Origin: an uncultured Verrucomicrobiae bacterium
Lineage (GTDB): Bacteria > Verrucomicrobiota > Verrucomicrobiia > Limisphaerales > UBA11358
Assembly: GCA_963804345.1 (NCBI GenBank)
Contig: CAWDPX010000004.1
Coordinates: 320,181-384,180, forward strand
DNA length: 64,000 nt
Direction: 5' to 3'
Shown here: piece by piece, positions 11,220 to 27,955 of the stretch
Layout: each line of letters starts with the position of its first letter
How positions within the stretch are numbered: the stretch's first letter is position 1
Notes under the pieces: generated by a model
What the model was told of the DNA's origin: nothing
Databases searched by the model: none
The model's input: the letters and a program-made list of their open reading frames with translations, nothing else
Position numbers and translations under genes: made by a program

Positions 11220-11516
11220 ATGACCCGTCACTGCCACAACTGCGGCGAGGAATGGACGCTGACCGGCCAGCCGGGCCGGGGTGAAACCTGCATGAAATGC
11301 CGGGCCGACCTGCGCGTCTGCCGGAACTGCGCCCACCACGACCCGCGCGCAGCCCAGCAATGCCGTGAGCGCCGGGCCGAGCCGGTGCAGGAAAAGTACG
11401 TGGGCAATTTCTGCGAGTATTTTGAGTTTATCCGCCGAACCTGGACCCCGAAGGCCGGAGACAACCGGCGCGAAGCCGCCGCGCGCGAGCGGTTGAAAAA
11501 ATTGTTTGGCGATTGA
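11220..11516 (+). CDS. small Cys-rich (zinc-ribbon-like) hypothetical protein
   Basis: 98 aa. CHNC..CMKC..CRNC..C pattern. The opposite-strand long ORF here is judged an artefact. Confidence 0.6.
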   Translation: MTRHCHNCGEEWTLTGQPGRGETCMKCRADLRVCRNCAHHDPRAAQQCRERRAEPVQEKYVGNFCEYFEFIRRTWTPKAGDNRREAAARERLKKLFGD

Positions 11517-11532
11517 TGCGCCCGGTTCCGTT

Positions 11533-12537
11533 TCAACCGGAGGCCTTGCCGTCCATTTCGCTGAAAGCCCGCGCACAGGCGGCAATGACGGTTTCAGTCT
11601 CCACGTTGGAAATGATGCGGTCGTTGTTGGGTGACGCGAGCGCCCAGTCCGCGTGTTGATAGGGATGCGGCCGGCCCGGCGCCACGGACTCCATGATCAT
11701 CACCACCCGTTTGCCCATCGCCACAGCCAGATGCAACACCCCGGTATCGCCGCCCAGGGTCAGCGTGGACAGTTTGGCCAGCCCGCCGGTGACAAGCAAT
11801 GGCACGCCGGCCGAGACCGGAAAGCCCGCCAGGCGGGCCGGTTCCAGGGCGGCGCGTTCCGCCGGTCCACCGCCAAACAAGATTTGGACTCCGCGCTGCT
11901 GCCAATGCCGGGCGACCGCCAGATAGCGGTCGAGCGGCCAGTTTTTTTGCGGTGAACTGGTGAAGGGTTGAATAAGGAGGAGGGATGAGGCGGCATTTAG
12001 ATGGTGTGCGGCCAGAAAACTTCGCGCTTCGGCCAGCGCGCCGTCCGGCAGAACGAATTCGTTGAGAATTGTTCCCGAACGCAGGCCGCATTGCTCCAGC
12101 AGCGAGAGATACCAGTCCACGTGATGAATGCGCTCATTGCGCGTCACGCCGCGCGTGTAAGCCCAGCGCCGTCCCTGATGGTACACATTTCCCCAGCGGT
12201 GCGGCGCGCCACTCAACCAGGCCAGCCACGCCGTCTCGCCGTAGCCCTGAAAATCCACGACCCGCGAAAACTTTCCGCGGCGCAACCGGCGAATCAGGGA
12301 AAACGCCTCCGACACAATGGCCAGGGGATTTCCACTTTGAAACCGCGCGCGATTCAGCGTGATGACTTCGTCCACTTCCCGGAAGCCCTGCAACAGCGCC
12401 GCATTCTCGCTGGAAGTGAGAAAGGTGATGGTCGCGCCGGGGAAATTTCCCCGGATCACATGCACTGCCGGCAGGAGGAACAGGATGTCGCCGATGGATT
12501 TAAGGCGAATCAACAGAATGTTCTCGTTACGAACCAT
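11533..12537 (-). CDS. glycosyltransferase family 9 (heptosyltransferase-like)
   Basis: ILLIRLKSIGDILFLLPAVHVIRGNFPGATITFLT; C-terminal GGDTGVLHLAVAMGKRVV. Confidence 0.85.
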   Translation of the reverse strand: MVRNENILLIRLKSIGDILFLLPAVHVIRGNFPGATITFLTSSENAALLQGFREVDEVITLNRARFQSGNPLAIVSEAFSLIRRLRRGKFSRVVDFQGYGETAWLAWLSGAPHRWGNVYHQGRRWAYTRGVTRNERIHHVDWYLSLLEQCGLRSGTILNEFVLPDGALAEARSFLAAHHLNAASSLLLIQPFTSSPQKNWPLDRYLAVARHWQQRGVQILFGGGPAERAALEPARLAGFPVSAGVPLLVTGGLAKLSTLTLGGDTGVLHLAVAMGKRVVMIMESVAPGRPHPYQHADWALASPNNDRIISNVETETVIAACARAFSEMDGKASG

Positions 12538-12651
12538 GAGCCGTCAGGCTATGCACCCCGCCACCAATGGAAAAGCACAGATTTAAAGGCGCCGGTTTTC
12601 CTGCTGGACGGTTTTGGGAACAGCGGATTGAATGGGGGCATCCGGCATTGC

Positions 12652-13293
12652 ATGAACAAGCCATTGAGCAAAAATATTTTCTGGACCCGGGGCAAGGTCA
12701 CGGCGGAACAGCGCGCGCATCTGAGCGGCCACTCCGGCTGCGTCATCTGGATCACGGGTTTGAGCGCCTCCGGCAAATCCACGATTGCCACGGAACTGGA
12801 GCGCGAGTTGATCAGCCGGGGCAAGCTGGCCTATCTGCTGGACGGCGACAACACACGCCACGGCCTTTGTTCCGACCTGGGCTTCTCACCGGAAGACCGG
12901 CGCGAGAACATCCGGCGGGTGGGGGAAGTTGTCAGACTGTTTGCCGATGCCGGCATCATTTGCATCACGGCGTATATATCTCCCTACCGTTCCGACCGGG
13001 ACAAGGCGCGCCAGTTGGTGCCGCCGGGAAAATTCATCGAGGTGTATTTGAATGCGCCGCTGGCCGTCTGCGAGCAGCGCGACCCCAAGGGGCTTTACGC
13101 CAAAGCGCACAGCGGTGAAATCAAGGAGTTTACCGGCGTCTCCGCCCCCTACGAACCGCCCTTGAAACCGGAACTCGAATTGCACACCGACAAAATGAGC
13201 GTGGCCGAATGTGTGGCTGCCATTCTGGCGAAGCTGGATCGGATGTCAGCCATTGTTGATGGCGCTCCCGCCGACGATGGCAAAAAAGGCTGA
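12652..13293 (+). CDS. cysC: adenylyl-sulfate (APS) kinase
   Basis: GCVIWITGLSASGKSTIA, YLLDGDNTRHGL, FSPEDRRENIRRVGEV, ISPYRSDR, RDPKGLYAKA. Start moved to the ATG at 12652; the longer ORF runs antisense through the GT9 gene. Confidence 0.93.
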   Translation: MNKPLSKNIFWTRGKVTAEQRAHLSGHSGCVIWITGLSASGKSTIATELERELISRGKLAYLLDGDNTRHGLCSDLGFSPEDRRENIRRVGEVVRLFADAGIICITAYISPYRSDRDKARQLVPPGKFIEVYLNAPLAVCEQRDPKGLYAKAHSGEIKEFTGVSAPYEPPLKPELELHTDKMSVAECVAAILAKLDRMSAIVDGAPADDGKKG

Positions 13294-13302
13294 CGGCATG
13301 GT

Positions 13303-14241
13303 TCATCGCGGAAGCCCCGCCTTTGCCGGGCAGCCGCACAGGTGCCACCCAACCAGCGCCGTGCAGACGCGGCAACGCAAACGCCAGCGCCCGTTTTGGC
13401 CAAAGGTGACGAGAACCAGCACCAGCGCCGCGAGCCAGTCCAGAAGCAACCGCGTCATCAGGCCGGCGGTCAGGATTGACCGTGTCAACGGGGATTGATT
13501 TTTAGCGAAGTAAGCGTAACGCGAGCGCCAGTATTCAATTCTTGCCGCAGCGGAGATTTGTTTCGCCGTTTGTCCCTGGTCATGCCAGACCCGCACGCCG
13601 GGCAGGTGCATCACCCGCAAACCCGCCCGGCGGACTTGCCGGCAAAAATCCGTTTCCTCGAAAAAGAAAAAATAGCGCTCATCCAGGCCGCCGAGCTTGT
13701 CCCACACTTCCTTGCGGATCAGCATGAACGCGCCCACAACCGTCTCGACCTCCGTCGGTCCGGTGAAGTGATGTTCCTTGCCGGGAAACCGGCGGGGGAA
13801 CAACCGCCGCAGCAGCGACTTGTTCAACAGTTCCGTCGCCAGCGTCGGGAAATTGGCGATGGAATTCTGGCGCGAACCGTCCGCGTTGAGCAGTTGCGCC
13901 CCGGCAACGGCGCAATCGGGATGGGCGCGCATCCATCCGGCCGCCTGTGCCAGCGCGTCCGGTTGCAGCCGGGCATCCGAATTGAGCAACAGCAGAAAAT
14001 CCCCGCGCGCCGGTTTCGCCGCGAGATTGCAGGCGCGCGCAAAGCCGAGGTTGGTTTCGGAACGGATGAGCTTGACGGATGAAAATTCACGCGCCAGCAC
14101 CGCGGCCGTGTCGTCGGTCGAGCAGTTGTCCACAATGATGATTTCCGTCGCCAATGAATCCTGTGCCGCCTGCACCGAGCGGATGGCCGCGCAAGTCAAG
14201 ACGCCGGTGTTGCGCGTGGGGATGATAACGGACAGGTCCAT
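13303..14241 (-). CDS. glycosyltransferase family 2
   Basis: MDLSVIIPTRNTG...IIIVDNCSTDDT...LLLLNSDA. Confidence 0.85.
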   Translation of the reverse strand: MDLSVIIPTRNTGVLTCAAIRSVQAAQDSLATEIIIVDNCSTDDTAAVLAREFSSVKLIRSETNLGFARACNLAAKPARGDFLLLLNSDARLQPDALAQAAGWMRAHPDCAVAGAQLLNADGSRQNSIANFPTLATELLNKSLLRRLFPRRFPGKEHHFTGPTEVETVVGAFMLIRKEVWDKLGGLDERYFFFFEETDFCRQVRRAGLRVMHLPGVRVWHDQGQTAKQISAAARIEYWRSRYAYFAKNQSPLTRSILTAGLMTRLLLDWLAALVLVLVTFGQNGRWRLRCRVCTALVGWHLCGCPAKAGLPR

Positions 14242-14244
14242 GGC

Positions 14245-15009
14245 TTATGCCGGTGGTTTCCCCCGCTGCTGCAATTCCCACAACTTGGCGTATTTGATGA
14301 AGGTGTAGTAGGCGTGCAATGCTGCAATTAAAAATCCGCGCGTCCCTTCACGAAAACCCTGCTGGAAAAAGTACTTCTTCACAAACCCGCCGACCGGGTG
14401 CAATGCCAGTTGCGTGAATCCCGCCCGGCGGCCGGCGGCAAAATAGCGTTGGGCCATCAGCGTGGTGTATTTTTCATTTTTGGCCATCACCACGGCGAGC
14501 GTGGGGAAAGGATGTTGTAAAATGGAATTTTTGAAATAGCCGATGCGGCCGGAACATTCAAAGCCTTCATGCACCAAATCCGGGCGGTACCGAAAGAGCC
14601 GGCGGTCAAACACCTGCGGCTGGCGATAATCCGGATACCAGCCGCAAAACCGGATGGGCCGGCCAAGAAAGGTGTTGCGCCGCGGCACAAACCAGGCGGC
14701 GTAACCAGGCGATTGCAGCCGTTCGCGAAGTTCCGCAACGAATTCCGGCGTGCTGCGCTCGTCGGCATCAATGCTCACAATCCAGTTGTGTTTCAGCAAG
14801 GCCAGCGCCTGGTTGCGCAATTTGCCGAAGCCGTCGAAGGGCAGGTTGACGTGGTGCACGCCGAATTGCGCGCAAACCTGCGCCGTGTCGTCGGAGCTGA
14901 ACGAGTCCACGACGACGACTTCATCCGCCCACAACACCGTCGGCAGCACCTCCCGCAGGTTGGCTGCTTCCTGATAAGCGATGATGTAAAGGCTGACCGG
15001 TTCGGGCAT
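14245..15009 (-). CDS. glycosyltransferase family 2 (LPS-core WaaE/KdtX-like)
   Basis: VSLYIIAYQEAANLREVLPTVLWADEVVVVDSFSSDDT...SIDADER. The ORF is open up to 15117; the internal ATG at 15009 is preferred. Confidence 0.8.
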   Translation of the reverse strand: MPEPVSLYIIAYQEAANLREVLPTVLWADEVVVVDSFSSDDTAQVCAQFGVHHVNLPFDGFGKLRNQALALLKHNWIVSIDADERSTPEFVAELRERLQSPGYAAWFVPRRNTFLGRPIRFCGWYPDYRQPQVFDRRLFRYRPDLVHEGFECSGRIGYFKNSILQHPFPTLAVVMAKNEKYTTLMAQRYFAAGRRAGFTQLALHPVGGFVKKYFFQQGFREGTRGFLIAALHAYYTFIKYAKLWELQQRGKPPA

Positions 15010-15158
15010 GGCGTTGAAATTCAATGGATTCTGCGCAGTTCGCGCGGCGCTTGAACTGCGGACAGTGTATCCCACCCTTCTCGCCGCCCGCAAAAGAATT
15101 GTGAAACGACCCGGCAAATCCCGGCGCCCGCCCGGCGGCTTCGCGGCTGGCTCCCGGC

Positions 15159-15971
15159 TTACATCACAACCGCATCGCTCGAAGGCGCCGGTGCGGAAAA
15201 ATACTTGTTACGAGCTTTGCAGACCTGCCGGTAGAACGACATGTTGTAAAGGTGGCAGAGCAAATATTTCCATTTTATCTCGCTTGTATAACGATCGTGA
15301 GACGCGACCTGGTTCGCAGCACCCAACCCGGCTTTGGCGCACAGTCCGGGAAAAATCTCATTGACCCCGAAGGAATAGAGTTCGAGGTCCAGCTGGTTGT
15401 ATTCCCTGGCCATTTCGACCAGCCGGCGGTCGTTCTCCAGGGATTTTTTGATCCGATTGTCCGGCGCGAGATTTTTCCGTTTATAGTTCAGGTTCAGCGG
15501 GTAGGGGCTGAGTTGCTCCAGGACGCGCAGGGAAAGCTCAAATTTTTCCGTCAAACCGACAAAGCCGCACGTTTCCAGGTAGCGTTTGGCCCGGTCCAGA
15601 TTTCGCCCGCCCGCCATCAGTTTTACATGCAGGTTTTCAAGATCTTCGTTTTGACGCAATTCCTCTTCAAACGTCCGGCGGTTGCCGTTGAGGACCGAAG
15701 CCTGATATTGGGAAAAAACCCTGGCCACCGGGTCCCTCAGGAAGGTCATGTGAAAAGGGTTGGGGACGGACAGGCTTAACGGATCGAACAGATTATGACC
15801 GGCGATGCTCCGCAATCCGGGGAACATTTTCCTCGCAAAATCCAGGTCCCGCTGGGTGAAAACGGGCCTTTTGGTATGATTGGTATGGCACGCGAACACA
15901 CCCAGGCTGTTTTCGAGTATGAACTGGAAACTTGAGCCCGCAGTTCTTGGAATGTGACAAAAAACAATCAT
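15159..15971 (-). CDS. sulfotransferase family protein
   Basis: N-terminal FCHIPRTAGSSF resembles the PAPS 5'-phosphosulfate-binding loop (HIPKTGGTS type). Context includes cysC and ATP sulfurylase. Confidence 0.75.
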   Translation of the reverse strand: MIVFCHIPRTAGSSFQFILENSLGVFACHTNHTKRPVFTQRDLDFARKMFPGLRSIAGHNLFDPLSLSVPNPFHMTFLRDPVARVFSQYQASVLNGNRRTFEEELRQNEDLENLHVKLMAGGRNLDRAKRYLETCGFVGLTEKFELSLRVLEQLSPYPLNLNYKRKNLAPDNRIKKSLENDRRLVEMAREYNQLDLELYSFGVNEIFPGLCAKAGLGAANQVASHDRYTSEIKWKYLLCHLYNMSFYRQVCKARNKYFSAPAPSSDAVVM

Positions 15972-16074
15972 TGCCTGATTTCAGCCACGAGTGTTGCGAG
16001 CCGCAACCGCTGGAAGCAAACTAATTCCGCGCCGGGGCGAAGCGTTTCAGAAGCCTGGTCCCGTGATGCCTGGT

Positions 16075-17130
16075 TCACGGGACCTCCTCCAAATTGGAGA
16101 CGGTGAACCGGTCACGTTCAACCCGGGCGTCGCCGCTGCGGAGGTGATACAGCGGCTTGTTGCCGTAAAAGGACGCCCATTGCGAAAGGGTGCTCGGAGG
16201 TCCCAGAAGGTAATCACACCCGGCCAGCGTGTATAAGTCCACCACCAGCGTTCCGGTGCCAATCACGACCGTGAGTCCGGTGAATTCCGACGCCTGCCGC
16301 GGTTCGTCGCTGCATACGAAAAATGCCGTCTTCCGGCCGGGAAATTGTCCGGCCAGTTCGCGCATCCAGGCGGCATACTGGTTCACGGCGAAAAAAAACC
16401 GCCCTTCCCTCCAGGTACGATAATCCGTGCGCCGGATGTGGACCCCGACCACGATATCCGCCTGCTGCCGCAGGAACTCGACGCTTTGACGGACGGCCTG
16501 TCCGACCTCGCTGATGGGCTGGAAAAACTCCCGGATGCGGTCCGCCTGCCGCCGTACGGATTCAGGCGCGCGAAACCGCCAGCCATGGAAAAAAACAATT
16601 TTGGCATCGGCCATGCGGGATTGCACCTCCGCGTCGTCCAGCAAAATGGTCTGGCGGGGAATCTCCCGGAGCGTAAACATGCGTTTGCCCAGAATCGGAA
16701 AATAATCATTCCACCCGCTGGCGCGGTGGATGAGATGGTAGAAAATCCGCGTCTTGCGGATGGCCGGCGCGGCACCGGGAATCAGGTCAAACAGGCTCTG
16801 GCGCCGGGCAACCGGATAGCGGCAATAGATGTCATGGCGCGTGGACTCGAAAAGGTGGGCGTAGGAATGAAAGGCGACATTAACGACGCGATGGCCGTGT
16901 TCGGCGGCGAAGCCGATGACATTGGCAAACAGCACCAGCCGATTCCCCAGACGGCCGGTTCGCAGGCCGATGACGAGGATTTTGTTATCAGCCGACTGCA
17001 TGGATTTCAGAAATTGACGGATTATTTCGGGTAAATCTTCCCGGTTGCCGGGCATCTGGCAAGCTTTCATCAAAAACAGACAGCCTGAGGCGCGGATTTC
17101 GCGACCGATTATTGTGCAATCCGACGGCAA
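16075..17130 (-). CDS. glycosyltransferase, GT11/fucosyltransferase-like (tentative)
   Basis: GRLGNRLVLFANVIGFA (cf. GGLGNQ) and VGVHIRRTDY (cf. HVRRGDY). The true start may be an internal Met. Confidence 0.5.
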   Translation of the reverse strand: MPSDCTIIGREIRASGCLFLMKACQMPGNREDLPEIIRQFLKSMQSADNKILVIGLRTGRLGNRLVLFANVIGFAAEHGHRVVNVAFHSYAHLFESTRHDIYCRYPVARRQSLFDLIPGAAPAIRKTRIFYHLIHRASGWNDYFPILGKRMFTLREIPRQTILLDDAEVQSRMADAKIVFFHGWRFRAPESVRRQADRIREFFQPISEVGQAVRQSVEFLRQQADIVVGVHIRRTDYRTWREGRFFFAVNQYAAWMRELAGQFPGRKTAFFVCSDEPRQASEFTGLTVVIGTGTLVVDLYTLAGCDYLLGPPSTLSQWASFYGNKPLYHLRSGDARVERDRFTVSNLEEVP

Positions 17131-17331
17131 AGTAAAACGAACCGGGGCTTTCTGGCTTGACCCTCTCCGTCCCGGAGTTGTTTACTATCCGCACGGGTAC
17201 CACGATTGGCCAGCCACCCGCTACACTTTTCAACCGCCGTTGGCATGCAATCAGGCATGCCCAAGTGGTATGGCGGCCGAAGGCCATCGGCGAGCGGATC
17301 GTTAGAAACATTGCGCGAGATAATCTCAATC

Positions 17332-19482
17332 ATGAACAAAAGAATCCTATGCACGATTGGGCCCGCCACGCGCCATCCCAAAATCCTCCGGCGACTTCAG
17401 GCCCTGGGGGTCAGCCTGTTTCGAATTAATCTCTCGCACACCAGGATTGAGGACGTCCGTCCAACCATCGCCTTTCTACAGGAACACTCGAACGTGCCGG
17501 TCTGTCTCGACAGTGAAGGCGCGCAGATTCGGACGGGCACGTTCGAGTCCGCGCCGTTGAGTCTGGATGAAAACACGTTCGTCGAAGTCCATAGTTCTCC
17601 GCCGCCCGGGAAGGAAGCGGGGCTGACGTTCACGCCGGAGAACATCTGCGACCAACTAGAGGTCGGCGACCTGATCACGATCGACTTTAACGCAGTCGTG
17701 GCGCAAGTGACCGCGCAGCAAGACGATCACGCCACCCTGCGAATCCTCAACGGCGGCCAGGTTGGCATCAACAAGGCGGTGACCGTGCATCGGGACATCG
17801 CCCTGCCCGCCATCACCCCCAAGGATCGTGAAGCCATCAGAATTGGGCGCGAGATGGGCGTGAAACATTTCGCCCTCTCGTTCGCGAATCGGGAGGATGA
17901 TGTTCTCCAAATGCGGGCTCTCATCGGCGAAGGTGCAACGCTGATTTCCAAGATTGAATCGCTCAATGGCATTGCAAATCTTGAGGGGATCGCCCGGCAT
18001 TCCGACGCCATCCTCATTGATCGCGGCGACCTTTCCCGGCAGGTCGCGCTGGCGAAGATCCCGGCACATCAGAAGGACATCATTCGTCGCGCCAAGGCCG
18101 TCGGCCGGCCGGTTTTCGTCGCCACCAATCTGCTCGAGTCCATGATTAAACTGCCCGTGCCGACGCGGGCCGAAATCAACGACATTTACAACACGCTGGC
18201 CGATGGCGCCGACGGCCTCGTTCTCGCTGCGGAAACCGCCGTCGGTCATTATCCCATTGCGTGTGCCGGCATGGTGGCGAAAGTGATCTCCGAGTTCGAG
18301 CAGGCGCATGGCGGACGCATCATCCCGGATGGATCGTTGCTTGTCCGGCCGCATGGCGGAACGCTGGTGGAACGGGTTCTTTCACGATTTGATGAAGCGG
18401 ACCTTGCGCTCCTCCCTCGGGTGGTTGTGGCCGATACCGACCTGATGGATGCGGAGCAAATTGCGCTGGGCACCTACTCGCCGCTAACCGGCTTCATGGA
18501 CCGGGCCAGCCTGACTTCCGTGCTGGAGCGGAACCGGCTCGTTGACGACACGGTGTGGACGCTGCCGATCACACTGCAGGTCAATGCGGACCATGACCGT
18601 CATCTGGCCGCGGGCGCCCGCGTTGCGCTTTGTTCCAAAGAAGGAACAGTTCACGCAATTCTGGATGTCACCGAACGCTTCGAACTCGATCCCCTGCGCC
18701 TCGTCGAAAAATGGTTTGGGACCTCCTCAACCGACCACCCGGGGGTCGCCCGCATCCTCGGTCGCGGACCCATTTTCCTGGCGGGTGAAGTAACCCTGGT
18801 CCGGCGGCTGACATCCCCCCAAAACCAGTTCATGCTAACTCCGTCGCAGACGCGGTTTCTGTTCAATCAAAAAGGCTGGGAGCGGGTCGTGGGCTTCCAC
18901 ACCCGGAATGTCGCCCATCGCGCCCACGAGCACATCCAGATCGAAGCACTAAGGCTGACCGACGCAGATGGTCTTCTAATCAGTCCGGTCATCGGCCCCA
19001 AAAAGCGCGGGGACTTTCAATCGAGCGCGGTCCTTGCCAGCTATCAGGCGTGTCTGGAGAACGGCATTTATCCCAAAAATCACGCGGTGTTAAGCGGCTT
19101 CGCCTCCTACCCGCGGTATGCCGGCCCGCGCGAAGCGGTCTTCACGGCGATCTGCCGCCAGAACATGGGCTGCAGTCATTTCATCATCGGCCGCGATCAC
19201 ACCGGCATCAAGGACTACTACAAACCCGATGACAGCCAAAGACTCTTTGAGACCGTCGGGGACATCGGCATCGTGCCGGTCTTCTTTGGCGCCATTGGCT
19301 ATGATGCAACGCGGGATTCATACGGTGAAGAATTGAACGGCCACCTCACTCCCATCAGTGGAACGGAAGTGCGGGAGGCTGTCCGCGAGGGCCGCCCGAT
19401 TCCAAACTGGATGGTGCGGCAATGCGTTCAAGATGCCCTTCGTTCCGAGCGGAAAGCTGGCCGCAGTGTGTTTGTGGAATGA
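17332..19482 (+). CDS. fusion protein: pyruvate kinase A/B-domain barrel + ATP sulfurylase (sulfate adenylyltransferase)
   Basis: PK motifs: FRINLSHT, LDSEGAQIRTG, ISKIES, IDRGDLS, ATNLLESM, PTRAEINDIYNTLADGADGLVLAAETAVGHYP. Sat motifs: RPHGGTLV, GFHTRNVAHRAHEHIQ, YAGPREAV, FIIGRDHTG. One uninterrupted ORF. Confidence 0.85.
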   Translation: MNKRILCTIGPATRHPKILRRLQALGVSLFRINLSHTRIEDVRPTIAFLQEHSNVPVCLDSEGAQIRTGTFESAPLSLDENTFVEVHSSPPPGKEAGLTFTPENICDQLEVGDLITIDFNAVVAQVTAQQDDHATLRILNGGQVGINKAVTVHRDIALPAITPKDREAIRIGREMGVKHFALSFANREDDVLQMRALIGEGATLISKIESLNGIANLEGIARHSDAILIDRGDLSRQVALAKIPAHQKDIIRRAKAVGRPVFVATNLLESMIKLPVPTRAEINDIYNTLADGADGLVLAAETAVGHYPIACAGMVAKVISEFEQAHGGRIIPDGSLLVRPHGGTLVERVLSRFDEADLALLPRVVVADTDLMDAEQIALGTYSPLTGFMDRASLTSVLERNRLVDDTVWTLPITLQVNADHDRHLAAGARVALCSKEGTVHAILDVTERFELDPLRLVEKWFGTSSTDHPGVARILGRGPIFLAGEVTLVRRLTSPQNQFMLTPSQTRFLFNQKGWERVVGFHTRNVAHRAHEHIQIEALRLTDADGLLISPVIGPKKRGDFQSSAVLASYQACLENGIYPKNHAVLSGFASYPRYAGPREAVFTAICRQNMGCSHFIIGRDHTGIKDYYKPDDSQRLFETVGDIGIVPVFFGAIGYDATRDSYGEELNGHLTPISGTEVREAVREGRPIPNWMVRQCVQDALRSERKAGRSVFVE

Positions 19483-19682
19483 TATTCGCCATCCGGTGCA
19501 AGCAGAGCGCCAATCCGACACCCCCGGGATAAATCTAGCGCGCTGCCCACCGTAAGACTGTTCGCCAGGGTGCCGTCGGCGGACAAGGGCCATGCCTTCA
19601 AACCGGTTTGATCCGGGAGACAGCTTGGAAAGAAATCGTCCAGCGGCACAAATCGTAGCTGCTGGTCTGGGCCGCCCGACGC

Positions 19683-20558: not shown

Positions 20559-20704
20559 GCGGGCAGTATTAAATTGAACCGAACCCCGCGGGACAACGAA
20601 AATTCACGCAATCTTGAGCCGGCCGGCCGCAAAAAAATCTGGTGTCCGCAGCACCCCCCGAACATATTGGCCCGGCAGCAACAATCGAAAGCCGCCGCCG
20701 CGTC

Positions 20705-21721
20705 ATGAAAATCCTGGCCATTCAATTCCGCTACTTCGGTGACGCGGCGTTGATGACGACTGCCTTGCGCGCCATCAAGGAGCATTTTCCGAATGCCGCG
20801 CTGCATGTGCTGGTGGCCGAAGAAGTTGCGCCGCTGTTCCAGCATCTGTCCTGGCTCGAACGCGTCTGGGCCTTCCCCCGCGCCCGGGGCAAGGCCAGAC
20901 TGAGACAATCCTGGCCGATCATCCGGGCTCTGCGCCGGGAACGCTTTGATCGCTCGGTGGATTTCGGAAGCGGCGACCGCAGCGCCATCATCAGCTTGTT
21001 GTGCGGCGCGCGGCAACGGCTGGCCCCCTTTTGGCCGGGCGGCTTCCTCGGTCGCCGTTATTGTTACACCCAAACCGTTCCAATTCCTGAATCATTGCAC
21101 GAGGCCCGGCGCAATTTGCATCTCCTGTCGGCCTGGGGCATCGGCCCCCCCGTTTCTTTGGAGATGGAAATCCACACCGATCCGGTGTGTGACAGTGCCG
21201 CGGCACGGCTGTTGCCGCGGCCAGCCATCCTTTGCCACCTCGCCACCGGCCAGCCCAAGAAGGAATGGCCGCTGGCCTCCTGGGCGGAATTTTATCGCCA
21301 AGCGACCGGCGCCGGCTACGAAGTGATTTTTTCCACGGGGATTTCGCCGCGCGATCAGGCCGGATTGGAGGGCTTAAAAAAACTGGCGCCGGAGGCTCCC
21401 AGCCTGCCGCCCAACCCCGACCTGGCCCTGTTTCTGGCGGTGCTCAAGCGGGCGCGGTTGTTTGTCGCTGGCGATACCGGGCCCCTGCATTTTGCCGCCG
21501 GCTTGGGGGTTCCGACCGTTGCATTGTTCGGCCCGACCTTGATCCGCCGGTGGGCACCGCTCGGCAAACAGCACCGGGTGCTGCAGGGCGGCCCATGCAC
21601 TTGCGGCGGCGAGGTGGGAGTTTGCCAAAGCGCGAGTCCCTGCATGGCGGCAATTTCGCCGGAAGCGGTGATGCAACTGGTCCGGCAAGCCCTGCCGTCA
21701 TCCCGGGTTGCGTCCAGGTAG
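20705..21721 (+). CDS. glycosyltransferase family 9 (heptosyltransferase-like)
   Basis: MKILAIQFRYFGDAALMTTALRAIKEHFP...VAGDTGPLHFAAGLGVPTVALFGPT. Confidence 0.85.
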   Translation: MKILAIQFRYFGDAALMTTALRAIKEHFPNAALHVLVAEEVAPLFQHLSWLERVWAFPRARGKARLRQSWPIIRALRRERFDRSVDFGSGDRSAIISLLCGARQRLAPFWPGGFLGRRYCYTQTVPIPESLHEARRNLHLLSAWGIGPPVSLEMEIHTDPVCDSAAARLLPRPAILCHLATGQPKKEWPLASWAEFYRQATGAGYEVIFSTGISPRDQAGLEGLKKLAPEAPSLPPNPDLALFLAVLKRARLFVAGDTGPLHFAAGLGVPTVALFGPTLIRRWAPLGKQHRVLQGGPCTCGGEVGVCQSASPCMAAISPEAVMQLVRQALPSSRVASR

Positions 21722-21868
21722 GCGAAAGAGTCCGCCAGGGAAATGGGTTGGAATGGATTTTGGCCGCCGTGCTCAGGTCGGCGACCAAGCCAAGGAAGCC
21801 CGGCGCGGCGCGCCAGGACGAAAACAAAACTTTCGCTTTTCCCCGCGGTTCGCCAAGAATACAGGCAA

Positions 21869-23698
21869 ATGACCGATTTCCTGCGCCAACTCTGGGGCTT
21901 CGTCCGGCCTTATCGCGGGCGGTTTTTTCTCGGCCTGCTCTGCGGCATTCTGTACGGCCTGACCAATGGCGCGCTGCTAGGTGCCGCCAAGGTGGTTACG
22001 GACCTGATTTTCACCGGCTCGACCAATTTCCACGAGCAGATCGCCAAACATCTGGCGAAGACACCGCACTGGATTCATCCCTTCACGGACTGGCTGGTCT
22101 CGGTGGCGCCGGAATTGCCCGCCCCCACTTCGCAACTGGGCTGGGCGCTGGTGGCGGGCGCCATTCCCGCCATCGTGCTGCTCCGCAACACACTGTCCTA
22201 CTTGAGTGTTTATCTGACGAACTGGTCGGCCATGCACGCCATCGCCGATATCCGCACAAAACTGTTCGGTCACCTGCAAAACCTTTCGCTTGGATTTTTC
22301 AACCGCGCCAGCACTGGCGATTTGATCGCGCGTATCACCAACGACACGCAGGTGCTTTACAGCATCGTCGGCAGTTCGTTTTCCTCCGCCGTCAAAGACC
22401 CGGTAACCATCCTTTGCACGCTCGTCGTCCTGCTGATCCTCCAGCCCACGTTGACGCTGGTGTCCATCGTGGTTTTTCCCGTGTGCATCGTGCCGATCAT
22501 TATTTATGGACGCAAGGTCCGCAAATCCGCGCGCGCCGTTCAGGCATACAACGCCGAACTGACCAATCTCATGCACGAGTCCTTCACCGGCAACCGTGTT
22601 ATCAAAGCCTACAACCTGGAAGCCACCGTCATCGAACAATTCAAGGCCACGACTAAAAAATACGTCAGCCAGCTCATGCGCGTCATCCGCGCCAATGAAA
22701 TTCCCAGCCAGCTCATGGAATTATTCGGGGCCACGGGAATCGCGCTGGTTTTCTTTTATGTGCAGAACCTGCCGGCCAACCAGCGGCCCAAGGCGTCGGA
22801 TTTCTTCATGTTTATCCTCGCCATCGTGGTGATTTACCCGCCCATCAAGGCGTTTACGCGGCTCTACAACCAGCTTCACCAGGCGCGCGCCGCCAGCGAA
22901 CGCGTCTTCCAGTTGCTCGCCATGAAAAATTCCGTGCCGGAACCTGCCGCGCCCAAAATGCTTCAGGCGGACCAGGCTGACATTCTGTTTGAAAACCTCG
23001 ATTTTAATTACGGCGAAAAACCGGTCCTGCACAACATCAACCTCACCGTCAAAGCCGGCCAGCTGGTTGCGCTGGTCGGCGCCAGCGGCTCCGGCAAAAC
23101 CACGCTGGCCAATTTGCTCCTGCGTTTCTACGATCCCGTGCAGGGCGCGGTTAAAATCGGCGGCGTGGATTTGCGCGACGTTTCCACGCGCGACCTGCGC
23201 AATCAAATTGCCGTCGTTGCCCAGGAAAACATTTTGTTCAACGACACCGTCCGCCGGAACATCGAGCTGGGCCGCCTCGGCGCAACGAACGACGAAATTA
23301 TCGCCGCCGCCAGACACGCCTACGCCTACGATTTCATCACACAAAAACCCGAGGGCTTCGACGCCGTCATCGGCGAGAAGGGCGTCTCCCTTTCCGGCGG
23401 CCAGCGCCAGCGCCTCGCCATCGCCCGCGCCGTCTTGAAAAACGCGCCGATTCTGGTCCTGGATGAAGCCACCAGCGCGCTCGACACCGAGTCCGAACGC
23501 GCCGTGCAGGCCGCGCTCGACGAATTAATGAAAGGCCGCACGACCATTTGCATCGCCCACCGGCTCTCGACCATTCTCCATGCCGATGTCATCGTTGTCC
23601 TGGACCAGGGCCGCATCGTGGAAACCGGCACACACACGGAATTGATCCAGCACGGCGGCATTTATCAAAAGCTGCACGAACTTCAGTTCCAAAGCTGA
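21869..23698 (+). CDS. msbA: ABC transporter permease/ATPase, MsbA-like lipid A exporter
   Basis: Six-TM N-terminal half. Walker A GASGSGKTT, signature LSGGQRQRLAIARA, Walker B ILVLDEATSALD. Confidence 0.9.
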   Translation: MTDFLRQLWGFVRPYRGRFFLGLLCGILYGLTNGALLGAAKVVTDLIFTGSTNFHEQIAKHLAKTPHWIHPFTDWLVSVAPELPAPTSQLGWALVAGAIPAIVLLRNTLSYLSVYLTNWSAMHAIADIRTKLFGHLQNLSLGFFNRASTGDLIARITNDTQVLYSIVGSSFSSAVKDPVTILCTLVVLLILQPTLTLVSIVVFPVCIVPIIIYGRKVRKSARAVQAYNAELTNLMHESFTGNRVIKAYNLEATVIEQFKATTKKYVSQLMRVIRANEIPSQLMELFGATGIALVFFYVQNLPANQRPKASDFFMFILAIVVIYPPIKAFTRLYNQLHQARAASERVFQLLAMKNSVPEPAAPKMLQADQADILFENLDFNYGEKPVLHNINLTVKAGQLVALVGASGSGKTTLANLLLRFYDPVQGAVKIGGVDLRDVSTRDLRNQIAVVAQENILFNDTVRRNIELGRLGATNDEIIAAARHAYAYDFITQKPEGFDAVIGEKGVSLSGGQRQRLAIARAVLKNAPILVLDEATSALDTESERAVQAALDELMKGRTTICIAHRLSTILHADVIVVLDQGRIVETGTHTELIQHGGIYQKLHELQFQS

Positions 23699-23919
23699 AC
23701 CCAACCGCCCCTGAAATACCAAGCCGCCAGAGAAGCCGCTTGAAATCCATGCGGTTCAGTTCCGGTGTTTTAGTGACCCCGTTCCGTTGCATTTTACCGC
23801 CGGCGTGGGCGTGCCGCCCCTGGCCCGGATCGGGGCCGCTTTGCCGGTGCTTTGGGCTCCGATTGGAGCGCGCCACCGCTTGCCAGAGCGCGAATCACTG
23901 CATAGCGGCAACTTCAACC

Positions 23920-25791
23920 CTATTTGAAAAACTCCCGGATTTCCTGCAGGGCCTGAAGAGTTTCACTGCCGGGGGTGCGGCGCGGGTCGTCCTTGGGCAG
24001 TTCATGGTCGCTCATGTCCAGGTAAAGCGTTCGCGACGGCTTGAAAATCGTGATGCTGTCTTCGTTGAACAGCGCCGTGTCCCGCCAGCCGGCGAGCAGC
24101 GCCCAGTTCCGGATTTCTTTCCCTTCGATCGGTTCCCCCGTGGTGTAGTCTCCGAGTGTGTTCGTGATGCCCATCCAGATCAACACGGACGGCGCAAAAT
24201 CCACGTGGGAAGTCACGTGGTTGATCAACCGGGGATTTTCTCCCGGCAGGTGCAGGACGCCGAACGTCTGTGTCTGAAAGCGGTTGAAGGAACTGCAGTG
24301 TCCGAAATGCCCCAATTCGCCAAATTCCTCCCCGTGATCACCAGCCACGACGATGACGGTCCGCCCGTATTCACCCCGGTCTTGGAGGGCTTTCACGATC
24401 CGGCCAATCTGCCGGTCGATATAATGGAGGGAATTCAAATAAGAGCCTTTCAAGGCCTGCGCCCCGGCGGGTGACAGCGTAAGTTTAAGATAGTTGATCT
24501 CACCGGACTTTGAGCCTTCATATAAATTGTCCTCCGGCGGATGCTCGTAAGGCTGGTGCGAGCCATCGAAGAAAAGGAACCCAAAGAACGGGTGTGCCGG
24601 AGCCGGCTGGCCGGCGCGCTCCGTCAGGTAATTGAGGAACTTGTCGGTCATCAGCCGGTCCCGGTCCAGATGGGGTGCGTTCCACTGATCCGTGATGTCG
24701 TTCGTCAGCTTCACAAAGCAGGTCTGCCGGAATTCCGGGTAGTTCAGGTCCGTGCAACTCATGATTCTGAATTCATAGCCGCAGCGGGCGAGCAGGTCGA
24801 ACCACGGCGGGCTTACGCTTTGTGCCAGCGCCCCGTGCCAGTAAGTGCCCGGGATCCCGTACAGCAGGCCGAAGATGCCAAAGCGGGTTTCGTTGCCGGT
24901 CGAAAAATGCTTCGTCAGGCGGAAGCTGTCTCCGGCGAGCTTGGAGAGATTGGGCATGGTCTTGTCGTCGAGCGCGTCAGACCGGCCGCCCTCGATGGCA
25001 ATGAACAGGATATTGGGTTCACGTGCGCCGGTCTGCAGACCCAGCGGATGTTGGGGGAGGTGGAGCGACTTCGCGCTGTCCGGCAGGACGCGTATTTCGC
25101 CGGGGGGCCGCTTGTAACCGAACCTTTTTGCCAGGTGTTTGATGGTCAGGGGCTGGTAGAGCGGCAATGTGTCGCGCACGGCCTGTACGGTTGAGTTGTC
25201 CCGCAAATCAATCACCGCAAAGGCGGTTCGTTCCAGGACCAGGGCGATGAGTATCGTTGCCAGCCCAAACCGCACCCGCCGGGGCGCCAGCCTCGGCGCC
25301 ACCCACAAGGCAAACGCCAGGCTGCCGCCGATGAGCATGAACACGATGGCAGTGGCCGTCACAACGCTGGCAGGGTCAACCCGCACACTGTCCCCGGCGC
25401 CTTTGGTGGTCAGTACGTTCCAAACCAGGCTGTCGAAATGCCGCTGAAAAAGCCGGAAGATGACGATGTCCGCGAGCAAGGACACCTGTAGCAGCGCAAA
25501 CATGAATCCCGCGAAGAGTCGCGCCCAAGTCCGGTGTCGCCAGCGGAGCAACGGCCAGGCCGTCAACAGGGCAGGCACGAGGTTTAGAAAACCGGCCTGA
25601 CTTATAATGGACAGCTCAAAGGGCACACAGACAATCCCATGAAGTCCGGTGGAAAGCCCCAGGATGTAACCCAGCTGCAACACCATCGTGAAAATGCAGT
25701 TGCTGAGATAAAGCCAGACCCACTCACGCCAGGGGCTTGGATTCGTGGCCGTGGTCATATCTCGACCGGATGCAGCGTGCATGCCTGTCAA
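23920..25791 (-). CDS. membrane-anchored sulfatase-fold protein, YejM/PbgA(LapC)-like
   Basis: Multi-TM N-terminus. HFSTGNETRFGIFGLLYGIPGTYW resembles the YejM SSGNTT..GIFGLFYGI. Also VVAGDHGEEFGE. Confidence 0.75.
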   Translation of the reverse strand: MTGMHAASGRDMTTATNPSPWREWVWLYLSNCIFTMVLQLGYILGLSTGLHGIVCVPFELSIISQAGFLNLVPALLTAWPLLRWRHRTWARLFAGFMFALLQVSLLADIVIFRLFQRHFDSLVWNVLTTKGAGDSVRVDPASVVTATAIVFMLIGGSLAFALWVAPRLAPRRVRFGLATILIALVLERTAFAVIDLRDNSTVQAVRDTLPLYQPLTIKHLAKRFGYKRPPGEIRVLPDSAKSLHLPQHPLGLQTGAREPNILFIAIEGGRSDALDDKTMPNLSKLAGDSFRLTKHFSTGNETRFGIFGLLYGIPGTYWHGALAQSVSPPWFDLLARCGYEFRIMSCTDLNYPEFRQTCFVKLTNDITDQWNAPHLDRDRLMTDKFLNYLTERAGQPAPAHPFFGFLFFDGSHQPYEHPPEDNLYEGSKSGEINYLKLTLSPAGAQALKGSYLNSLHYIDRQIGRIVKALQDRGEYGRTVIVVAGDHGEEFGELGHFGHCSSFNRFQTQTFGVLHLPGENPRLINHVTSHVDFAPSVLIWMGITNTLGDYTTGEPIEGKEIRNWALLAGWRDTALFNEDSITIFKPSRTLYLDMSDHELPKDDPRRTPGSETLQALQEIREFFK

Positions 25792-25992
25792 AAATAACCT
25801 TTGTCGGGTTTGATGTAAATATTTCCCAGATCAACTTCAGGATACGAGCCGGGCGCCACCGCCAAGTTGAGCCGCTCCATGAGCGTCACCATTTCCGATG
25901 GTTCTATGGCGATGGTCTCAGAACGCTGCTGCAACAAATCACGAATATTTGGATTGTTTATCGCCATGCAACCGGATTATTTTCACCGCGAA

Positions 25993-27105
25993 ATGGACGA
26001 CAAAATTCCCTATCTCGACCTCGTGGCGCAATTGCGCCCGCTCCGCAAAGAACTGGACGCCGCCATTGCGCGAACGATTGACCATTGCTCCTTTTGCCTC
26101 GGCCCCGACGTGGCGCAGTTTGAAAAGGACTTCGCCAAGTTCATCGGCGCGGAACACTGCGCCGGGTTCAACAGCGGCACCTCGGCATTGCACGCGGCGA
26201 TGCTGCTGCTCGGCGTCGGCCCCGGCGATGAAGTCATCACCACGCCCTTTACGTTCGTCGCCACGAGCTGGGCGATTTCCTACGTCGGCGCGAAGCCGGT
26301 CTTTGTGGACGTTGACGACGCCACCTTCAATCTCGACCCGAAGCGGGTTGAACGTGCCATCACGCCGCGCACCAAGGCCGTCATGCCGGTGCATCTCTAC
26401 GGCCATCCGTTCGACCTCGATCCGATCCTGGCAATTTGCCGTAAACACAAATTGCCGCTCGTCGAAGACGCCGCCCAATCGCATGGCGCGAAATACAAGG
26501 GCAAAATCGTCGGCACGTTTGGCGAAATTGCCTGCTTCAGCTTTTATCCGGGCAAAAACCTCGGCGCTTGCGGTGAAGGCGGCGCGCTGGTGACGAACAA
26601 CCCGGCTTTTGACAAACGCGCCCGCGCCCTGCGCGAGCATGGCTCCACCGTGCGTTATTATCACGACGAAGTTGGATACAATTACCGGATGGAAGGCATT
26701 CAAGGCGCGGTGCTCGGCGTGAAGCTGAAACATCTGGCCCAATGGACGACGGAACGCCGCCGCGTGGCGCATCGCTACCACGAACTGCTGGCGGGCACAC
26801 CGCTGCAACTGCCGCGCGAAGCTGCCTGGGCCGAAAGCGCGTATCATCTCTACGTCGTGCGCCATCCGCGCCGCGATGATTTGAAGAAACATCTCGAAGC
26901 CAACGGCGTTGGTTGCGCGCTGCATTACCCGCTGCCGCTGCACCTGCAAAAGTGCTATGCCAGCCTCGGCCACAAGCCCGGCGATTTCCCGGTGGCCGAA
27001 AAAGCCGCGCACGAATGCCTCAGCCTGCCGATTTTCCCTGAATTGACCGACCCGCAAATCCAGCGCGTGGTCGCGGTCATCAAGGATTTTTTCAAAAAGG
27101 GCTGA
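25993..27105 (+). CDS. DegT/DnrJ/EryC1/StrS-family sugar aminotransferase
   Basis: IPYLDL..., GDEVITTPFTFVAT, AVMPVHLYGHP, SFYPGKNLGACGEGG. An alternative ATG lies at 25966. Confidence 0.9.
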   Translation: MDDKIPYLDLVAQLRPLRKELDAAIARTIDHCSFCLGPDVAQFEKDFAKFIGAEHCAGFNSGTSALHAAMLLLGVGPGDEVITTPFTFVATSWAISYVGAKPVFVDVDDATFNLDPKRVERAITPRTKAVMPVHLYGHPFDLDPILAICRKHKLPLVEDAAQSHGAKYKGKIVGTFGEIACFSFYPGKNLGACGEGGALVTNNPAFDKRARALREHGSTVRYYHDEVGYNYRMEGIQGAVLGVKLKHLAQWTTERRRVAHRYHELLAGTPLQLPREAAWAESAYHLYVVRHPRRDDLKKHLEANGVGCALHYPLPLHLQKCYASLGHKPGDFPVAEKAAHECLSLPIFPELTDPQIQRVVAVIKDFFKKG

Positions 27106-27118
27106 TTGAATCGCAAAC

Positions 27119-27849: not shown

Positions 27850-27914
27850 AAAAACAAAGCTGGCCGCAGTTTAGAACCGCAGTTTCCAGACCTTCCGCGC
27901 AATAGCGACTTGAA

Positions 27915-27955
27915 CGCGCCAGCGTCTTGGACTGCGGCAGCCCTCTGCCGCTTTC
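27915..27955 (+). repeat. REP-like element (forward copy) upstream of rayT
   Basis: cgcgccagcgtcttggactgcggcagccctctgccgctttcg. Confidence 0.6.

Follow-up and report, generated by a model that had tools for sequence, protein, structure and literature searches.

Why does a soil-type Verrucomicrobium of the order Limisphaerales carry genes for sulfate activation and a sulfotransferase (ST) among genes resembling those for LPS core assembly, and on what would the sulfate be placed? The question arises from a 64,000-nucleotide stretch of DNA (the window) belonging to a MAG assembly that is 89% complete. All twelve genes proposed in the initial annotation at positions 11533-27105 were borne out in both coordinates and family by Pfam/NCBIfam profile matches, and a thirteenth conserved gene, encoding a 98-aa protein (h98), was recognized beside them (Table 1). 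We consider it reasonably likely that positions 11220-27105 form an LPS (LOS) core assembly locus with an added sulfation module, in which the core is sulfated before it is flipped by MsbA.

Table 1. Features of the locus, with profile scores and relationships to genes in related genomes
Feature	Position	Strand	Evidence
h98, Cys-rich 98-aa protein, zinc-ribbon-like, several CxxC	11220..11516	+	74-91% identity to ORFs edging relatives' loci; no match in Pfam search
GT9b, heptosyltransferase-like	11533..12537	-	PF01075 89 bits; TIGR02193 (heptosyltransferase I) 101 bits, under equivalog cut-off; orthologues (54-76% identity) at same place in relatives
CysC, APS kinase	12652..13293	+	PF01583 228 bits; NF003013 281 bits, over cut-off; start refined to 12652
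GT2, 312 aa	13303..14241	-	PF00535 89 bits; orthologues 70-78% identical in ST-bearing and ST-free loci alike
GT2, about 254-290 aa	14245..15117	-	PF00535 61 bits; start probably near 15009; 84% identity to counterpart in ST-negative G136, only about 30% to same-position gene in other ST-bearing loci
ST, Sulfotransfer_2 / HS2ST-HS6ST-like	15159..15971	-	PF03567 25.5 bits (cut-off 22)
GT11/NodZ-like, fucosyltransferase-superfamily, first gene of ST operon	16075..17001	-	PF01531 22.5 bits, just under cut-off 23.9; ORF 16075-17130, start most likely at 17001 (308 aa); orthologues 48-68% identical in relatives' loci, one with weak GT11 and NodZ marks
PK-Sat: PK A/B barrel + PUA_2 + Sat, one frame	17332..19482	+	226, 136, 219 bits; start most likely 17332 rather than 17206 (716 aa, as in relatives); divergent from ST operon
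h291, GT2-like, 291 aa	19683..20558	-	PF00535 26.7 bits, weak; 96% identity in G141, 35-41% to 291-aa gene of every related locus
GT9a, co-transcribed with MsbA	20642..21721	+	PF01075 95 bits; TIGR02201 121 bits, under cut-off; orthologues (53-92% identity) adjoin MsbA in relatives
MsbA-like lipid A-core flippase, ABC exporter	21743..23698	+	TIGR02203 520.6 bits (cut-off 602)
YejM/PbgA architecture: DUF3413 + Sulfatase, membrane protein	23920..25791	-	PF00884 109 bits, PF11893 64 bits; NF038282 139 bits (cut-off 825)
DegT-family PLP sugar aminotransferase	25867..27105	+	PF01041 427 bits; start probably near 25987; 82-94% identical copies adjoin GT9a/MsbA in relatives; dN/dS about 0.10-0.12

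Recurrence of the locus and placement of the sulfotransferase gene

The same gene set recurs with its order kept in more than 12 related genomes, and the grouping is therefore not a matter of chance. In two ST-negative genomes (G136 and G138) the locus consists of h98, h291, GT9b and genes like the 312- and 290-aa GT2s, followed by divergent MsbA, GT9a and DegT, while a third (G121) contains a partial version (GT9a, MsbA, GT2s, GT9b). Three metagenome loci (L006, L008 and L010) are arranged as in the ST-bearing genomes. The YejM-like gene, whose sulfatase-type domain is of the alkaline-phosphatase superfamily, was absent from all related loci examined and occurs only in the present genome's version. 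IS66 and RHS remnants lie on the left flank.

The ST gene was found in 13 of the 101 family genomes. Only about 38 bp separate GT2 from MsbA in ST-negative G136, and it is at exactly this position that ST is found in ST-positive G137. Seven of the 13 ST-positive sampled genomes have ST no more than 6.2 kb from the MsbA orthologue, and two more have it together with GT9b, h291 and h98. ST is thus accessory, an addition to a conserved core locus at the head of its glycosyltransferase operon.

Lipid A-core or another acceptor

The initial annotation had assigned the cluster to the lipid A-core pathway rather than to a capsule. This assignment is supported by the family-wide conservation of the locus, which centers on two GT9 genes and the gene that matches MsbA best in this genome, as well as by the only convincing WaaP/Kdo-kinase genes in the family sample, which adjoin ST in two relatives. 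TIGR02203 matched three genes in the genome, the other two being a tandem pair on another contig (C2). The scores of MsbA, the two GT9s and the YejM-like protein are all under the NCBIfam equivalog cut-offs, and WaaA is located on a different contig. Canonical gmhA was not found in the genome (48 bits; cut-off 209), so that heptose is only a candidate for the sugar transferred by the GT9 enzymes.

It is also conceivable, although fairly unlikely, that ST is active on some other acceptor (an O-antigen or EPS unit carried on undecaprenyl, a glycan destined for secretion, or a small metabolite) and that its gene is only a passenger in the core locus. The acceptor is not readable from the sequence, four Wzy_C-type genes occur elsewhere in the genome, the accessory glycosyltransferases near ST differ from genome to genome, and in other phyla the genes clustered with PK-Sat are of the Wzy_C or nonulosonic-acid type and not core genes. 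However, ST is surrounded by conserved GT9b, GT2, h291 and h98 in every ST locus examined, mostly 0.25-6 kb from MsbA, and lies on the same strand as the core glycosyltransferase genes with short intergenic gaps, while a Pfam profile search detected no Wzx, Wzy, Wzz, Bac_transf or Kps within the locus. These features argue against such an alternative acceptor.

The sulfotransferase and its probable supply of activated sulfate

The Sulfotransfer_2 match of ST is weak and covers only its N-terminal 100 residues (the N-terminal third), which include the motif FCHIPRTAGSSF at residues 4-15. Alignment of the family profile and a fold model nevertheless support the presence of PAPS-binding motifs: a 5'-PSB loop (HIPRTAGSS), a 3'-PB element (FLRDPVARVFS) and an aligned catalytic His59. 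The AF2 model has a pLDDT of 91.6, and its top 50 Foldseek matches are all sulfotransferases, the best being animal HS 2-O- and 6-O-sulfotransferases (4ndz, 3f5f, 5t03; E 2e-5 to 5e-4, probability 1.0). Sequence identity to these enzymes is only 17-20%, but the ST family profile aligns with HS6ST/HS2ST at the 5'-PSB, 3'-PB, GH and C-terminal N..D..LY motifs; the 5'-PSB loop, the 3'-PB RDPxxRxxS, a His base in a GH context and a C-terminal LN.LD..LY.FA are common to both. In contrast to the animal enzymes, the bacterial protein is predicted to be soluble and cytoplasmic with no Golgi anchor: it contains no signal peptide or TM segment, and in the AF2 model its first beta-strand starts at residue 2. 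An alignment of 25 orthologues has 50 invariant columns, and dN/dS (0.19-0.28) resembles that of the neighboring genes, indicating purifying selection. ST is therefore modeled as a credible cytoplasmic carbohydrate-type sulfotransferase. At position 9, in the PSB loop, the catalytic Lys is kept by 90% or more of the 25 orthologues, and G141 has it as well, but the present genome has Arg and G207 has Thr; the enzyme of this strain may therefore be less active or act differently.

The initial annotation further proposed that sulfate activation is dedicated to the cluster, which held for Sat but not for CysC. No APS kinase besides CysC was found in the 89%-complete genome (a single genomic match). 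CysH is of the PAPS type, having no Fe-S cysteine pairs and matching PAPS-reductase models best, which makes it probable that CysC serves both sulfation and sulfur assimilation. CysC is present in 84 of the 101 family genomes regardless of ST, with dN/dS of 0.22-0.29 against G141 and G207. Canonical CysC lies inside the locus in the window, G141, G207 and L006, whereas a conserved APS-kinase paralogue of roughly 145 aa adjoins ST in L008, G142, G150 and G076; no APS-kinase gene was found in four ST-negative loci.

Sat, by comparison, was found in only 3 of the 101 family genomes, adjoining ST each time, and CysD, CysN, CysH and CysI are encoded on a different contig (C18) from the locus. For these reasons Sat does not appear to be the assimilatory enzyme, and the PK-Sat fusion looks dedicated. 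The same association is seen further afield: in six sampled unrelated genomes with PK-Sat (one of them an alphaproteobacterium, another a Chloroflexi MAG), the fusion always lies amid glycan, nucleotide-sugar or related biosynthetic genes, and in five of the six its immediate neighbor encodes an APS kinase or a sulfotransferase. Homologues number about 2,900, and the architecture was seen in 120 of the 120 listed; a literature search found no description of it. The PK catalytic motifs are intact when aligned with solved PKs, and purifying selection is strong on both halves (dN/dS 0.08-0.15; about 0.09-0.10 for the PK half), so the PK half is probably active. No Sat or PK barrel other than those of PK-Sat was found in the genome. 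Because the closest sampled relative (G141) has a separate canonical PK in addition to the fusion, the missing PK may sit in the unassembled 11%.

Two further explanations bear on these genes. The Arg substitution could mean that ST has been weakened or retired here, leaving the LPS unsulfated and CysC and PK-Sat serving general sulfur metabolism, as the sole APS kinase, the PAPS-type CysH and the wide occurrence of CysC would allow. We regard this as unlikely, however, given that the gene is intact and under purifying selection, that Arg preserves the positive charge and persists in at least six distinct sequences (82-94% identity), and that Sat is confined to ST-bearing genomes although CysDN is present here. 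It is very unlikely that PK-Sat is a housekeeping pyruvate kinase and/or the main sulfate activator brought beside ST by a rearrangement accident near the RHS/IS66 debris, despite those remnants and the single PK barrel, since G141 carries both kinds of PK, Sat was not found in 98 of the 101 family genomes, and the fusion adjoins an APS kinase or sulfotransferase gene in five of six unrelated genomes.

Comparison with known systems and proposed pathway

In proteobacterial waa/rfa core loci, heptosyltransferases (WaaC/WaaF/WaaQ) build the core, and the kinases WaaP/WaaY add anionic phosphate to it. The present locus is similar in that its GT9s cluster with other core glycosyltransferases, that it is predicted to encode an enzyme adding an anionic group, and that a WaaP/Kdo-family kinase lies beside ST in two relatives. 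It differs in that the group would be sulfate instead of phosphate, that MsbA and DegT lie inside the locus with WaaA elsewhere, and that the GT9 scores fall short of equivalog level. Bifunctional PAPS synthases (NF004040) are Sat-APS kinase fusions found in animals, fungi and some bacteria. Here too Sat is joined to another enzyme, one that would help to pull unfavorable APS formation, but the partner is an N-terminal pyruvate-kinase barrel.

The main precedent for sulfated LPS is LpsS, which, like the predicted role of ST, is a PAPS-type sulfotransferase modifying LPS in a Gram-negative bacterium. The Sinorhizobium meliloti enzyme is listed as Stf0-family in PMC12445080, whereas ST matches only Sulfotransfer_2 (PF03567), has an HS2ST/HS6ST-like fold and comes from another phylum. 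PAPS genes and sulfotransferases within a polysaccharide cluster are described as a hallmark of sulfated polysaccharide synthesis in PMC11641403, which includes an NMR-proven sulfated CPS. The CPS cluster of Vibrio sp. KMM 8419, which has second copies of cysN, cysD and cysC (PMC11641403), likewise combines glycan-assembly genes, sulfate-activation genes and a carbohydrate sulfotransferase, and in both cases sulfation is presumed to be cytoplasmic, ahead of export. However, the present scaffold is a GT9/MsbA lipid A-core locus and not of the Kps or Wzx/Wzy capsule/O-antigen type, activation would rely on a PK-fused Sat in place of CysDN, CysC is a sole rather than a second copy, and the sulfated glycan is a predicted one.

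Under the core-sulfation reading, two GT9, three GT2-type and one GT11-like enzyme would assemble the core on Kdo-lipid A, on the cytoplasmic side of the inner membrane. The locus would have gained the PK-Sat fusion in the present subclade, with the Sat half converting sulfate and ATP to APS and the PK half probably remaking ATP on site from PEP and ADP, thereby pulling the unfavorable reaction. The adjacent CysC would convert APS to PAPS, probably also feeding CysH of the assimilatory pathway. Soluble ST, inserted into the operon, would then move sulfate from PAPS onto a core-sugar hydroxyl, giving a sulfated, more anionic core, and the finished core would be flipped by MsbA. The only solved verrucomicrobial LOS, that of Akkermansia muciniphila, contains heptose and Kdo, with sulfate not reported (PMC11436972). 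The locus described here predicts a sulfated outer-membrane glycolipid in a Limisphaerales bacterium.

Composition of the locus

The source genome comprises 4.64 Mb on 29 contigs and is 89% complete, the window corresponding to positions 320181-384180 of its contig C4; the source names of close homologues assign it to Limisphaerales (Verrucomicrobiota). Every gene family named for the cluster in the initial annotation, together with its placement, was confirmed by Pfam and NCBIfam scans. Two GT9 proteins (PF01075, 89 and 95 bits) are clustered with three GT2-type genes (one of them a weak match) and one GT11-like gene that scored just below the cut-off, accompanied by a DegT aminotransferase, an MsbA-like exporter, an APS kinase (CysC), a protein with the DUF3413 plus sulfatase-domain architecture of YejM, and a single open frame that joins a pyruvate-kinase barrel, a PUA_2 domain and an ATP sulfurylase (PK-Sat, the last part being referred to as Sat). 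The sulfotransferase gene (ST), PK-Sat and CysC all lie inside 7 kb and are interleaved with the glycosyltransferase genes. The protein of the additional ORF h98 contains several CxxC pairs (zinc-ribbon-like), is 66-91% identical across the family, had no Pfam match, and is always positioned at the edge of the LPS-core locus.

Coordinates of the locus and of related features (window positions unless another sequence is named)
Feature	Position	Strand	Remarks
h98, 98-aa Cys-rich ORF	11220-11516	+	Added to the locus; accompanies the locus in relatives
GT9b	11533-12537	-	
CysC, APS kinase	12652-13293	+	Start revised to 12652
GT2-type gene (counterparts: GT2_312-like)	13303-14241	-	
GT2-type gene (counterparts: GT2_290-like)	14245-15117	-	
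ST, sulfotransferase	15159-15971	-	
GT11-like gene	17001 (start)		Start revised to 17001
PK-Sat fusion	17332-19482	+	Start revised to 17332
h291, GT2-like	19683-20558	-	
GT9a	20642-21721	+	
MsbA	21743-23698	+	
DUF3413 + sulfatase-type protein	23920-25791	-	PF11893 residues 25-226; PF00884 residues 259-542
DegT aminotransferase	25867-27105	+	
APS-kinase paralogue, ~145 aa	L008:16480-16923; L038:5867-6298; L039:9449-9877; L040:7772-8272		In relatives; adjoins ST and h98
WaaP/Kdo-kinase matches	G154:C61:82791-83231; G149:C41:1472-1915		In relatives

The gene of YejM architecture occurs only in the source genome's version of the locus, none of the relatives examined having it at this place, and its protein scored 139 bits against NCBIfam NF038282, below the cut-off of 825. 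In the nearest sampled relative (G141), in G207 and in the other loci examined, the MsbA-GT9a pair is followed directly by DegT, with no YejM-like gene between them. The locus is bracketed on both sides by mobile or degenerate DNA, with an IS66 transposase and RHS-repeat remnants to its left (7653-11200) and an ORF without a Pfam match to its right (27106-28700). Elsewhere the window carries housekeeping genes (ffh, cinA, argH, alr and an aconitase-family gene).

The sulfotransferase and its distribution

The protein encoded by ST is 270 aa long and matches Sulfotransfer_2 (PF03567) over its N-terminal third, the sole Pfam match at E<=0.01; the NCBIfam scan gave no match. Its homologues number more than 390; identity is 60% or higher for the best 120, and those among them that bear a name all come from Limisphaerales or Verrucomicrobia. 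Twenty-five orthologues were aligned, with 50 columns invariant, and the AlphaFold2 model derived from this alignment reached a pLDDT of 91.6 and a pTM of 0.87. When this model was searched against the PDB with Foldseek, the top 50 matches were all sulfotransferases, the best being 4ndz and 3f5f (both HS2ST) and 5t03 (HS6ST) (TM ~0.5, probability 1.0).

The ST family profile aligns with HS6ST and HS2ST over the 5'-PSB, 3'-PB and C-terminal segments, so the earlier proviso that the protein might lack PAPS-binding motifs on proper alignment falls away. The 5'-PSB loop (residues 6-14, HIPRTAGSS) aligns with HIQKTGGTT of HS6ST and VPKTASTS of HS2ST, the profile alignment reading MIVFLHIPKTAGSTF versus VIVFLHIQKTGGTTF, and P8, T10 and G12 are invariant among the 25 orthologues. 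The 3'-PB motif (residues 77-87, FLRDPVARVFS) aligns with LRDPVSRYLS of HS6ST and IRDPIERLVS of HS2ST (in the profile, FLREPVARVLS versus LRDPVSRYLS), with R79, P81, R84 and S87 invariant in the same set; the third shared segment is a C-terminal LN.LD.ELY.FA motif. Residues G58-H59 fall on the GH of YHGHVSY in HS2ST; all 25 orthologues have G58, and at least 90% of them have H59. The histidine in this GH context, with which H59 aligns, is the catalytic base of HS2ST. The catalytic lysine of the PSB loop is replaced in the ST of the source genome: position 9 is arginine there and in five close homologues, which retains the positive charge, and threonine in G207, whereas 90% or more of the 25 aligned orthologues, that of G141 among them, have lysine. 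Codon 9 lies at 15945-15947 of the window; the genomes with the R, K and T variants (source genome, G141 and G207, respectively) all carry PK-Sat, and elsewhere in the family the residue is almost always lysine. The dN/dS of ST (0.19-0.28) indicates purifying selection similar to that on the adjoining CysC and GT9b. In the AlphaFold2 model the protein begins right at the first strand, and because neither a signal peptide nor a transmembrane helix was found in ST, and PAPS is made in the cytoplasm, the cytoplasm should be its site of action.

ST was found in 13 of 101 genomes sampled from the family and in 3 of an order-wide sample of 121, and in a phylum sample of 300 genomes its profile recovered distant relatives only (at most 104 bits, versus 489 for ST itself). 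The window proteins were mapped onto 16 related loci, the related genomes being non-independent samples. ST-positive and ST-negative genomes have a common core, consisting of h98, h291, GT9b, and the GT2_312-like and GT2_290-like genes on one strand, with MsbA, GT9a and DegT as a divergent arm; accessory glycosyltransferases (GT11-like, GT1, GT10, GT25) vary between loci. In the ST-negative genome G136 the last GT2 gene stands ~38 bp from MsbA, and in the ST-positive genome G137 ST sits exactly in that gap. ST is thus an accessory gene, one that joined the operon of core glycosyltransferases at its promoter-proximal end. ST is at most 6.2 kb from the MsbA orthologue in seven of the 13 ST-positive genomes and lies among GT9b, h291 and h98 in two more, the remaining ones being fragmented or outside the comparison. 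The MsbA of one close relative appears as two ORFs (278 and 350 aa) in locus L007 (2184-4023) and as one 612-aa ORF in the same sequence of locus L006 (2185-4023), the split in L007 probably being an assembly frameshift.

Sulfate activation and the pyruvate kinase-ATP sulfurylase fusion

On another contig of the source genome, C18, cysN (439 aa, without a kinase domain) forms a single block with cysD, cysH and cysI. Because these genes sit there, Sat is a second, non-assimilatory sulfate-activating enzyme, and its being the only sulfate-activation enzyme of the genome is ruled out. The block (4223-10321 of L005, the stretch C18:25000-41000) is interrupted by a 205-aa ORF between cysN and cysD. 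In the family sample, Sat was found in 3 of 101 genomes (the source genome, G141 and G207), in each case fused to the pyruvate kinase and 2-3 kb from ST. No APS kinase other than CysC was found in these genomes, and APS kinases occur in 84 of the 101 family genomes irrespective of ST. The CysH of the source genome is without the CC and CxxC pairs (Fe-S cysteines) of APS reductases and scored 144 bits against the PAPS-reductase model versus 62 bits against the APS-reductase model, both below cut-off. Since CysC is the sole APS kinase found, such kinases are common regardless of ST, and CysH is of the PAPS type, CysC is probably also needed for assimilation, its location in the locus being merely acquired. 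The dedicated sulfate-activation set proposed in the initial annotation thus stands for Sat, which is additional to the C18 genes, and does not stand for CysC.

Beside ST in locus L008 and in the related genomes G142, G150 and G076 lies an APS-kinase paralogue of ~145 aa, which keeps the P-loop, LDGD, FS..GR..NIR, SPFR and YEPP motifs but is shorter in the lid, where ~14 residues are deleted. A standard CysC is present elsewhere in the genome for at least G142 and G150, and four ST-negative loci showed no APS-kinase gene. The paralogue may be a dedicated mini APS kinase and, judged from gene neighbourhoods, the link between ST and APS phosphorylation is one that recurs independently.

Homologues of PK-Sat number ~2,900. 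Among the 120 listed, all combine PK, PUA_2 and Sat, and those from outside Limisphaerales, which include Mesorhizobium amorphae, Rhodospirillales and Caldilineaceae, are ~53-57% identical; the few labelled homologues are named 'pyruvate kinase', 'ATP sulfurylase' or 'sulfate adenylyltransferase' in their sources. Six PK-Sat genes were sampled outside Verrucomicrobia. Five have an APS kinase, a sulfotransferase or both as direct neighbours, each of the six is surrounded by genes for glycan, nucleotide-sugar or related biosynthesis (Wzy_C, GT4, nonulosonic-acid, radical-SAM), and cysH or cysI adjoined PK-Sat in none of the six genomes. Over its full length the PK half aligns with pyruvate kinases in the PDB (E=2.5e-55) and conserves the catalytic motifs R.N.SH, D.. 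G..R.G, SKIE, RGDL, AT..LESM and ETA.G.YP. The PK_C regulatory domain had no match in the fusion, PUA_2 and ATP sulfurylase coming after the barrel, and the matches to NCBIfam PK models reach only to about position 340 of 476. An in-frame comparison of the Sat domain gave 92-94% identity, and both halves are under strong purifying selection (dN/dS 0.08-0.15). No other PK barrel was found in the 89%-complete source genome; this may be an assembly gap, since G141 carries both the fusion and a separate canonical PK. A literature search found no paper describing the PK-Sat architecture. PK-Sat consistently adjoins APS kinases and sulfotransferases, which provides a role for it that can be tested and might put many annotations right, and the fusion is a possible compact PAPS-regeneration part for enzymatic sulfation.

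A predicted sulfated lipid A-core

Several lines of evidence bear on the identity of the locus. The best scores of the GT9 proteins against NCBIfam heptosyltransferase models are 101 bits, where the cut-off is 185, and 121 bits, where it is 170, which makes them family-level matches and not equivalogs. The cluster MsbA scored 520.6 bits against TIGR02203 (cut-off 602) and clearly outscores the two other matches of the source genome. RfaE domain I (heptose kinase; 341.4 bits, cut-off 345) is on the same contig as the locus and WaaA on a different one, and gmhA has no convincing match (48 bits versus a cut-off of 209), the genome being 89% complete. ST-positive and ST-negative family genomes were compared for WaaP/Kdo kinases with a view to an exchange of phosphate for sulfate, and almost all matches to PF06293 were weak and to generic kinases. 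The only convincing WaaP/Kdo-kinase matches in the 101-genome sample (72-76 bits), in two relatives, lie within ~1 kb of ST, and their position agrees with an LPS-core locus. The only solved verrucomicrobial LOS, that of Akkermansia, contains heptose and Kdo, with sulfate not reported (PMC11436972).

In the proposed pathway, sulfate would be converted to APS by Sat, assisted by the PK half, or by CysDN. From PEP and the ADP that APS kinase releases, the PK half would regenerate ATP, and this regeneration would both drive the thermodynamically unfavourable APS-forming step and relieve ADP inhibition. CysC would then convert APS to PAPS, and ST, as a putative PAPS-using enzyme, would move the sulfate to a hydroxyl of a core sugar, the core being built by the GT9, GT2 and GT11-like enzymes. 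Core assembly and sulfation would take place on Kdo-lipid A at the inner leaflet, after which the sulfated lipid A-core would be flipped by MsbA and exported by Lpt. The GT2 gene at 14245-15117 is 84% identical to the copy of an ST-negative genome and ~30% identical to the gene at the same position in other ST-positive loci. GT9b, h291 and h98 are always present in the loci compared. There is thus a weak hint that ST acts on the inner, conserved portion of the core.

Capsule clusters in which PAPS genes lie together with sulfotransferases are the closest published parallel, this arrangement being described as a hallmark of sulfated polysaccharide synthesis (PMC11641403). The locus likewise has a sulfotransferase, an ATP sulfurylase and an APS kinase inside a glycan cluster. 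In a cluster with a private PAPS supply the activation genes would be extra copies beside the assimilatory set; here Sat is additional to CysDN, CysC is the only APS kinase found, and CysH is of the PAPS type. LpsS, the LPS sulfotransferase of S. meliloti, belongs to the Stf0 family (PMC12445080). ST is unrelated to it at the family level, and homology to LpsS is ruled out, as the only Pfam match of ST is to PF03567, a different family. In the literature searched, LPS sulfate esters were tied to a gene in one system only, S. meliloti LpsS; neither a sulfated inner core nor a sulfated outer core came up there, nor did anything relevant on sulfated verrucomicrobial LPS or on a sulfotransferase in a heptosyltransferase cluster. 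The finding is thus a predicted sulfation module that sits in the LPS-core locus of a new phylum, draws on another sulfotransferase family and has PK-Sat, which is uncharacterised, as its activation enzyme.

A joint reading of these observations, which we offer as possible but rather doubtful, is that strain-variable core sulfation supplies outer-membrane anionic groups, with sulfate standing in for phosphate, in a family largely without WaaP-type core kinases, and that PK-Sat is an undescribed self-driving PAPS-supply module, coupling PEP-dependent ATP regeneration to sulfate activation, that has spread horizontally into glycan-sulfation clusters of several phyla. If this reading is true, sulfate replacing core phosphate may help in phosphorus-poor habitats or against phage. 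The same locus with and without ST constitutes a natural experiment in which the LOS of ST-positive and ST-negative Limisphaerales can be compared, and such a comparison bears on core sulfation and on its effect on charge, cation bridging, susceptibility to phage or antimicrobial peptides, and immune recognition.
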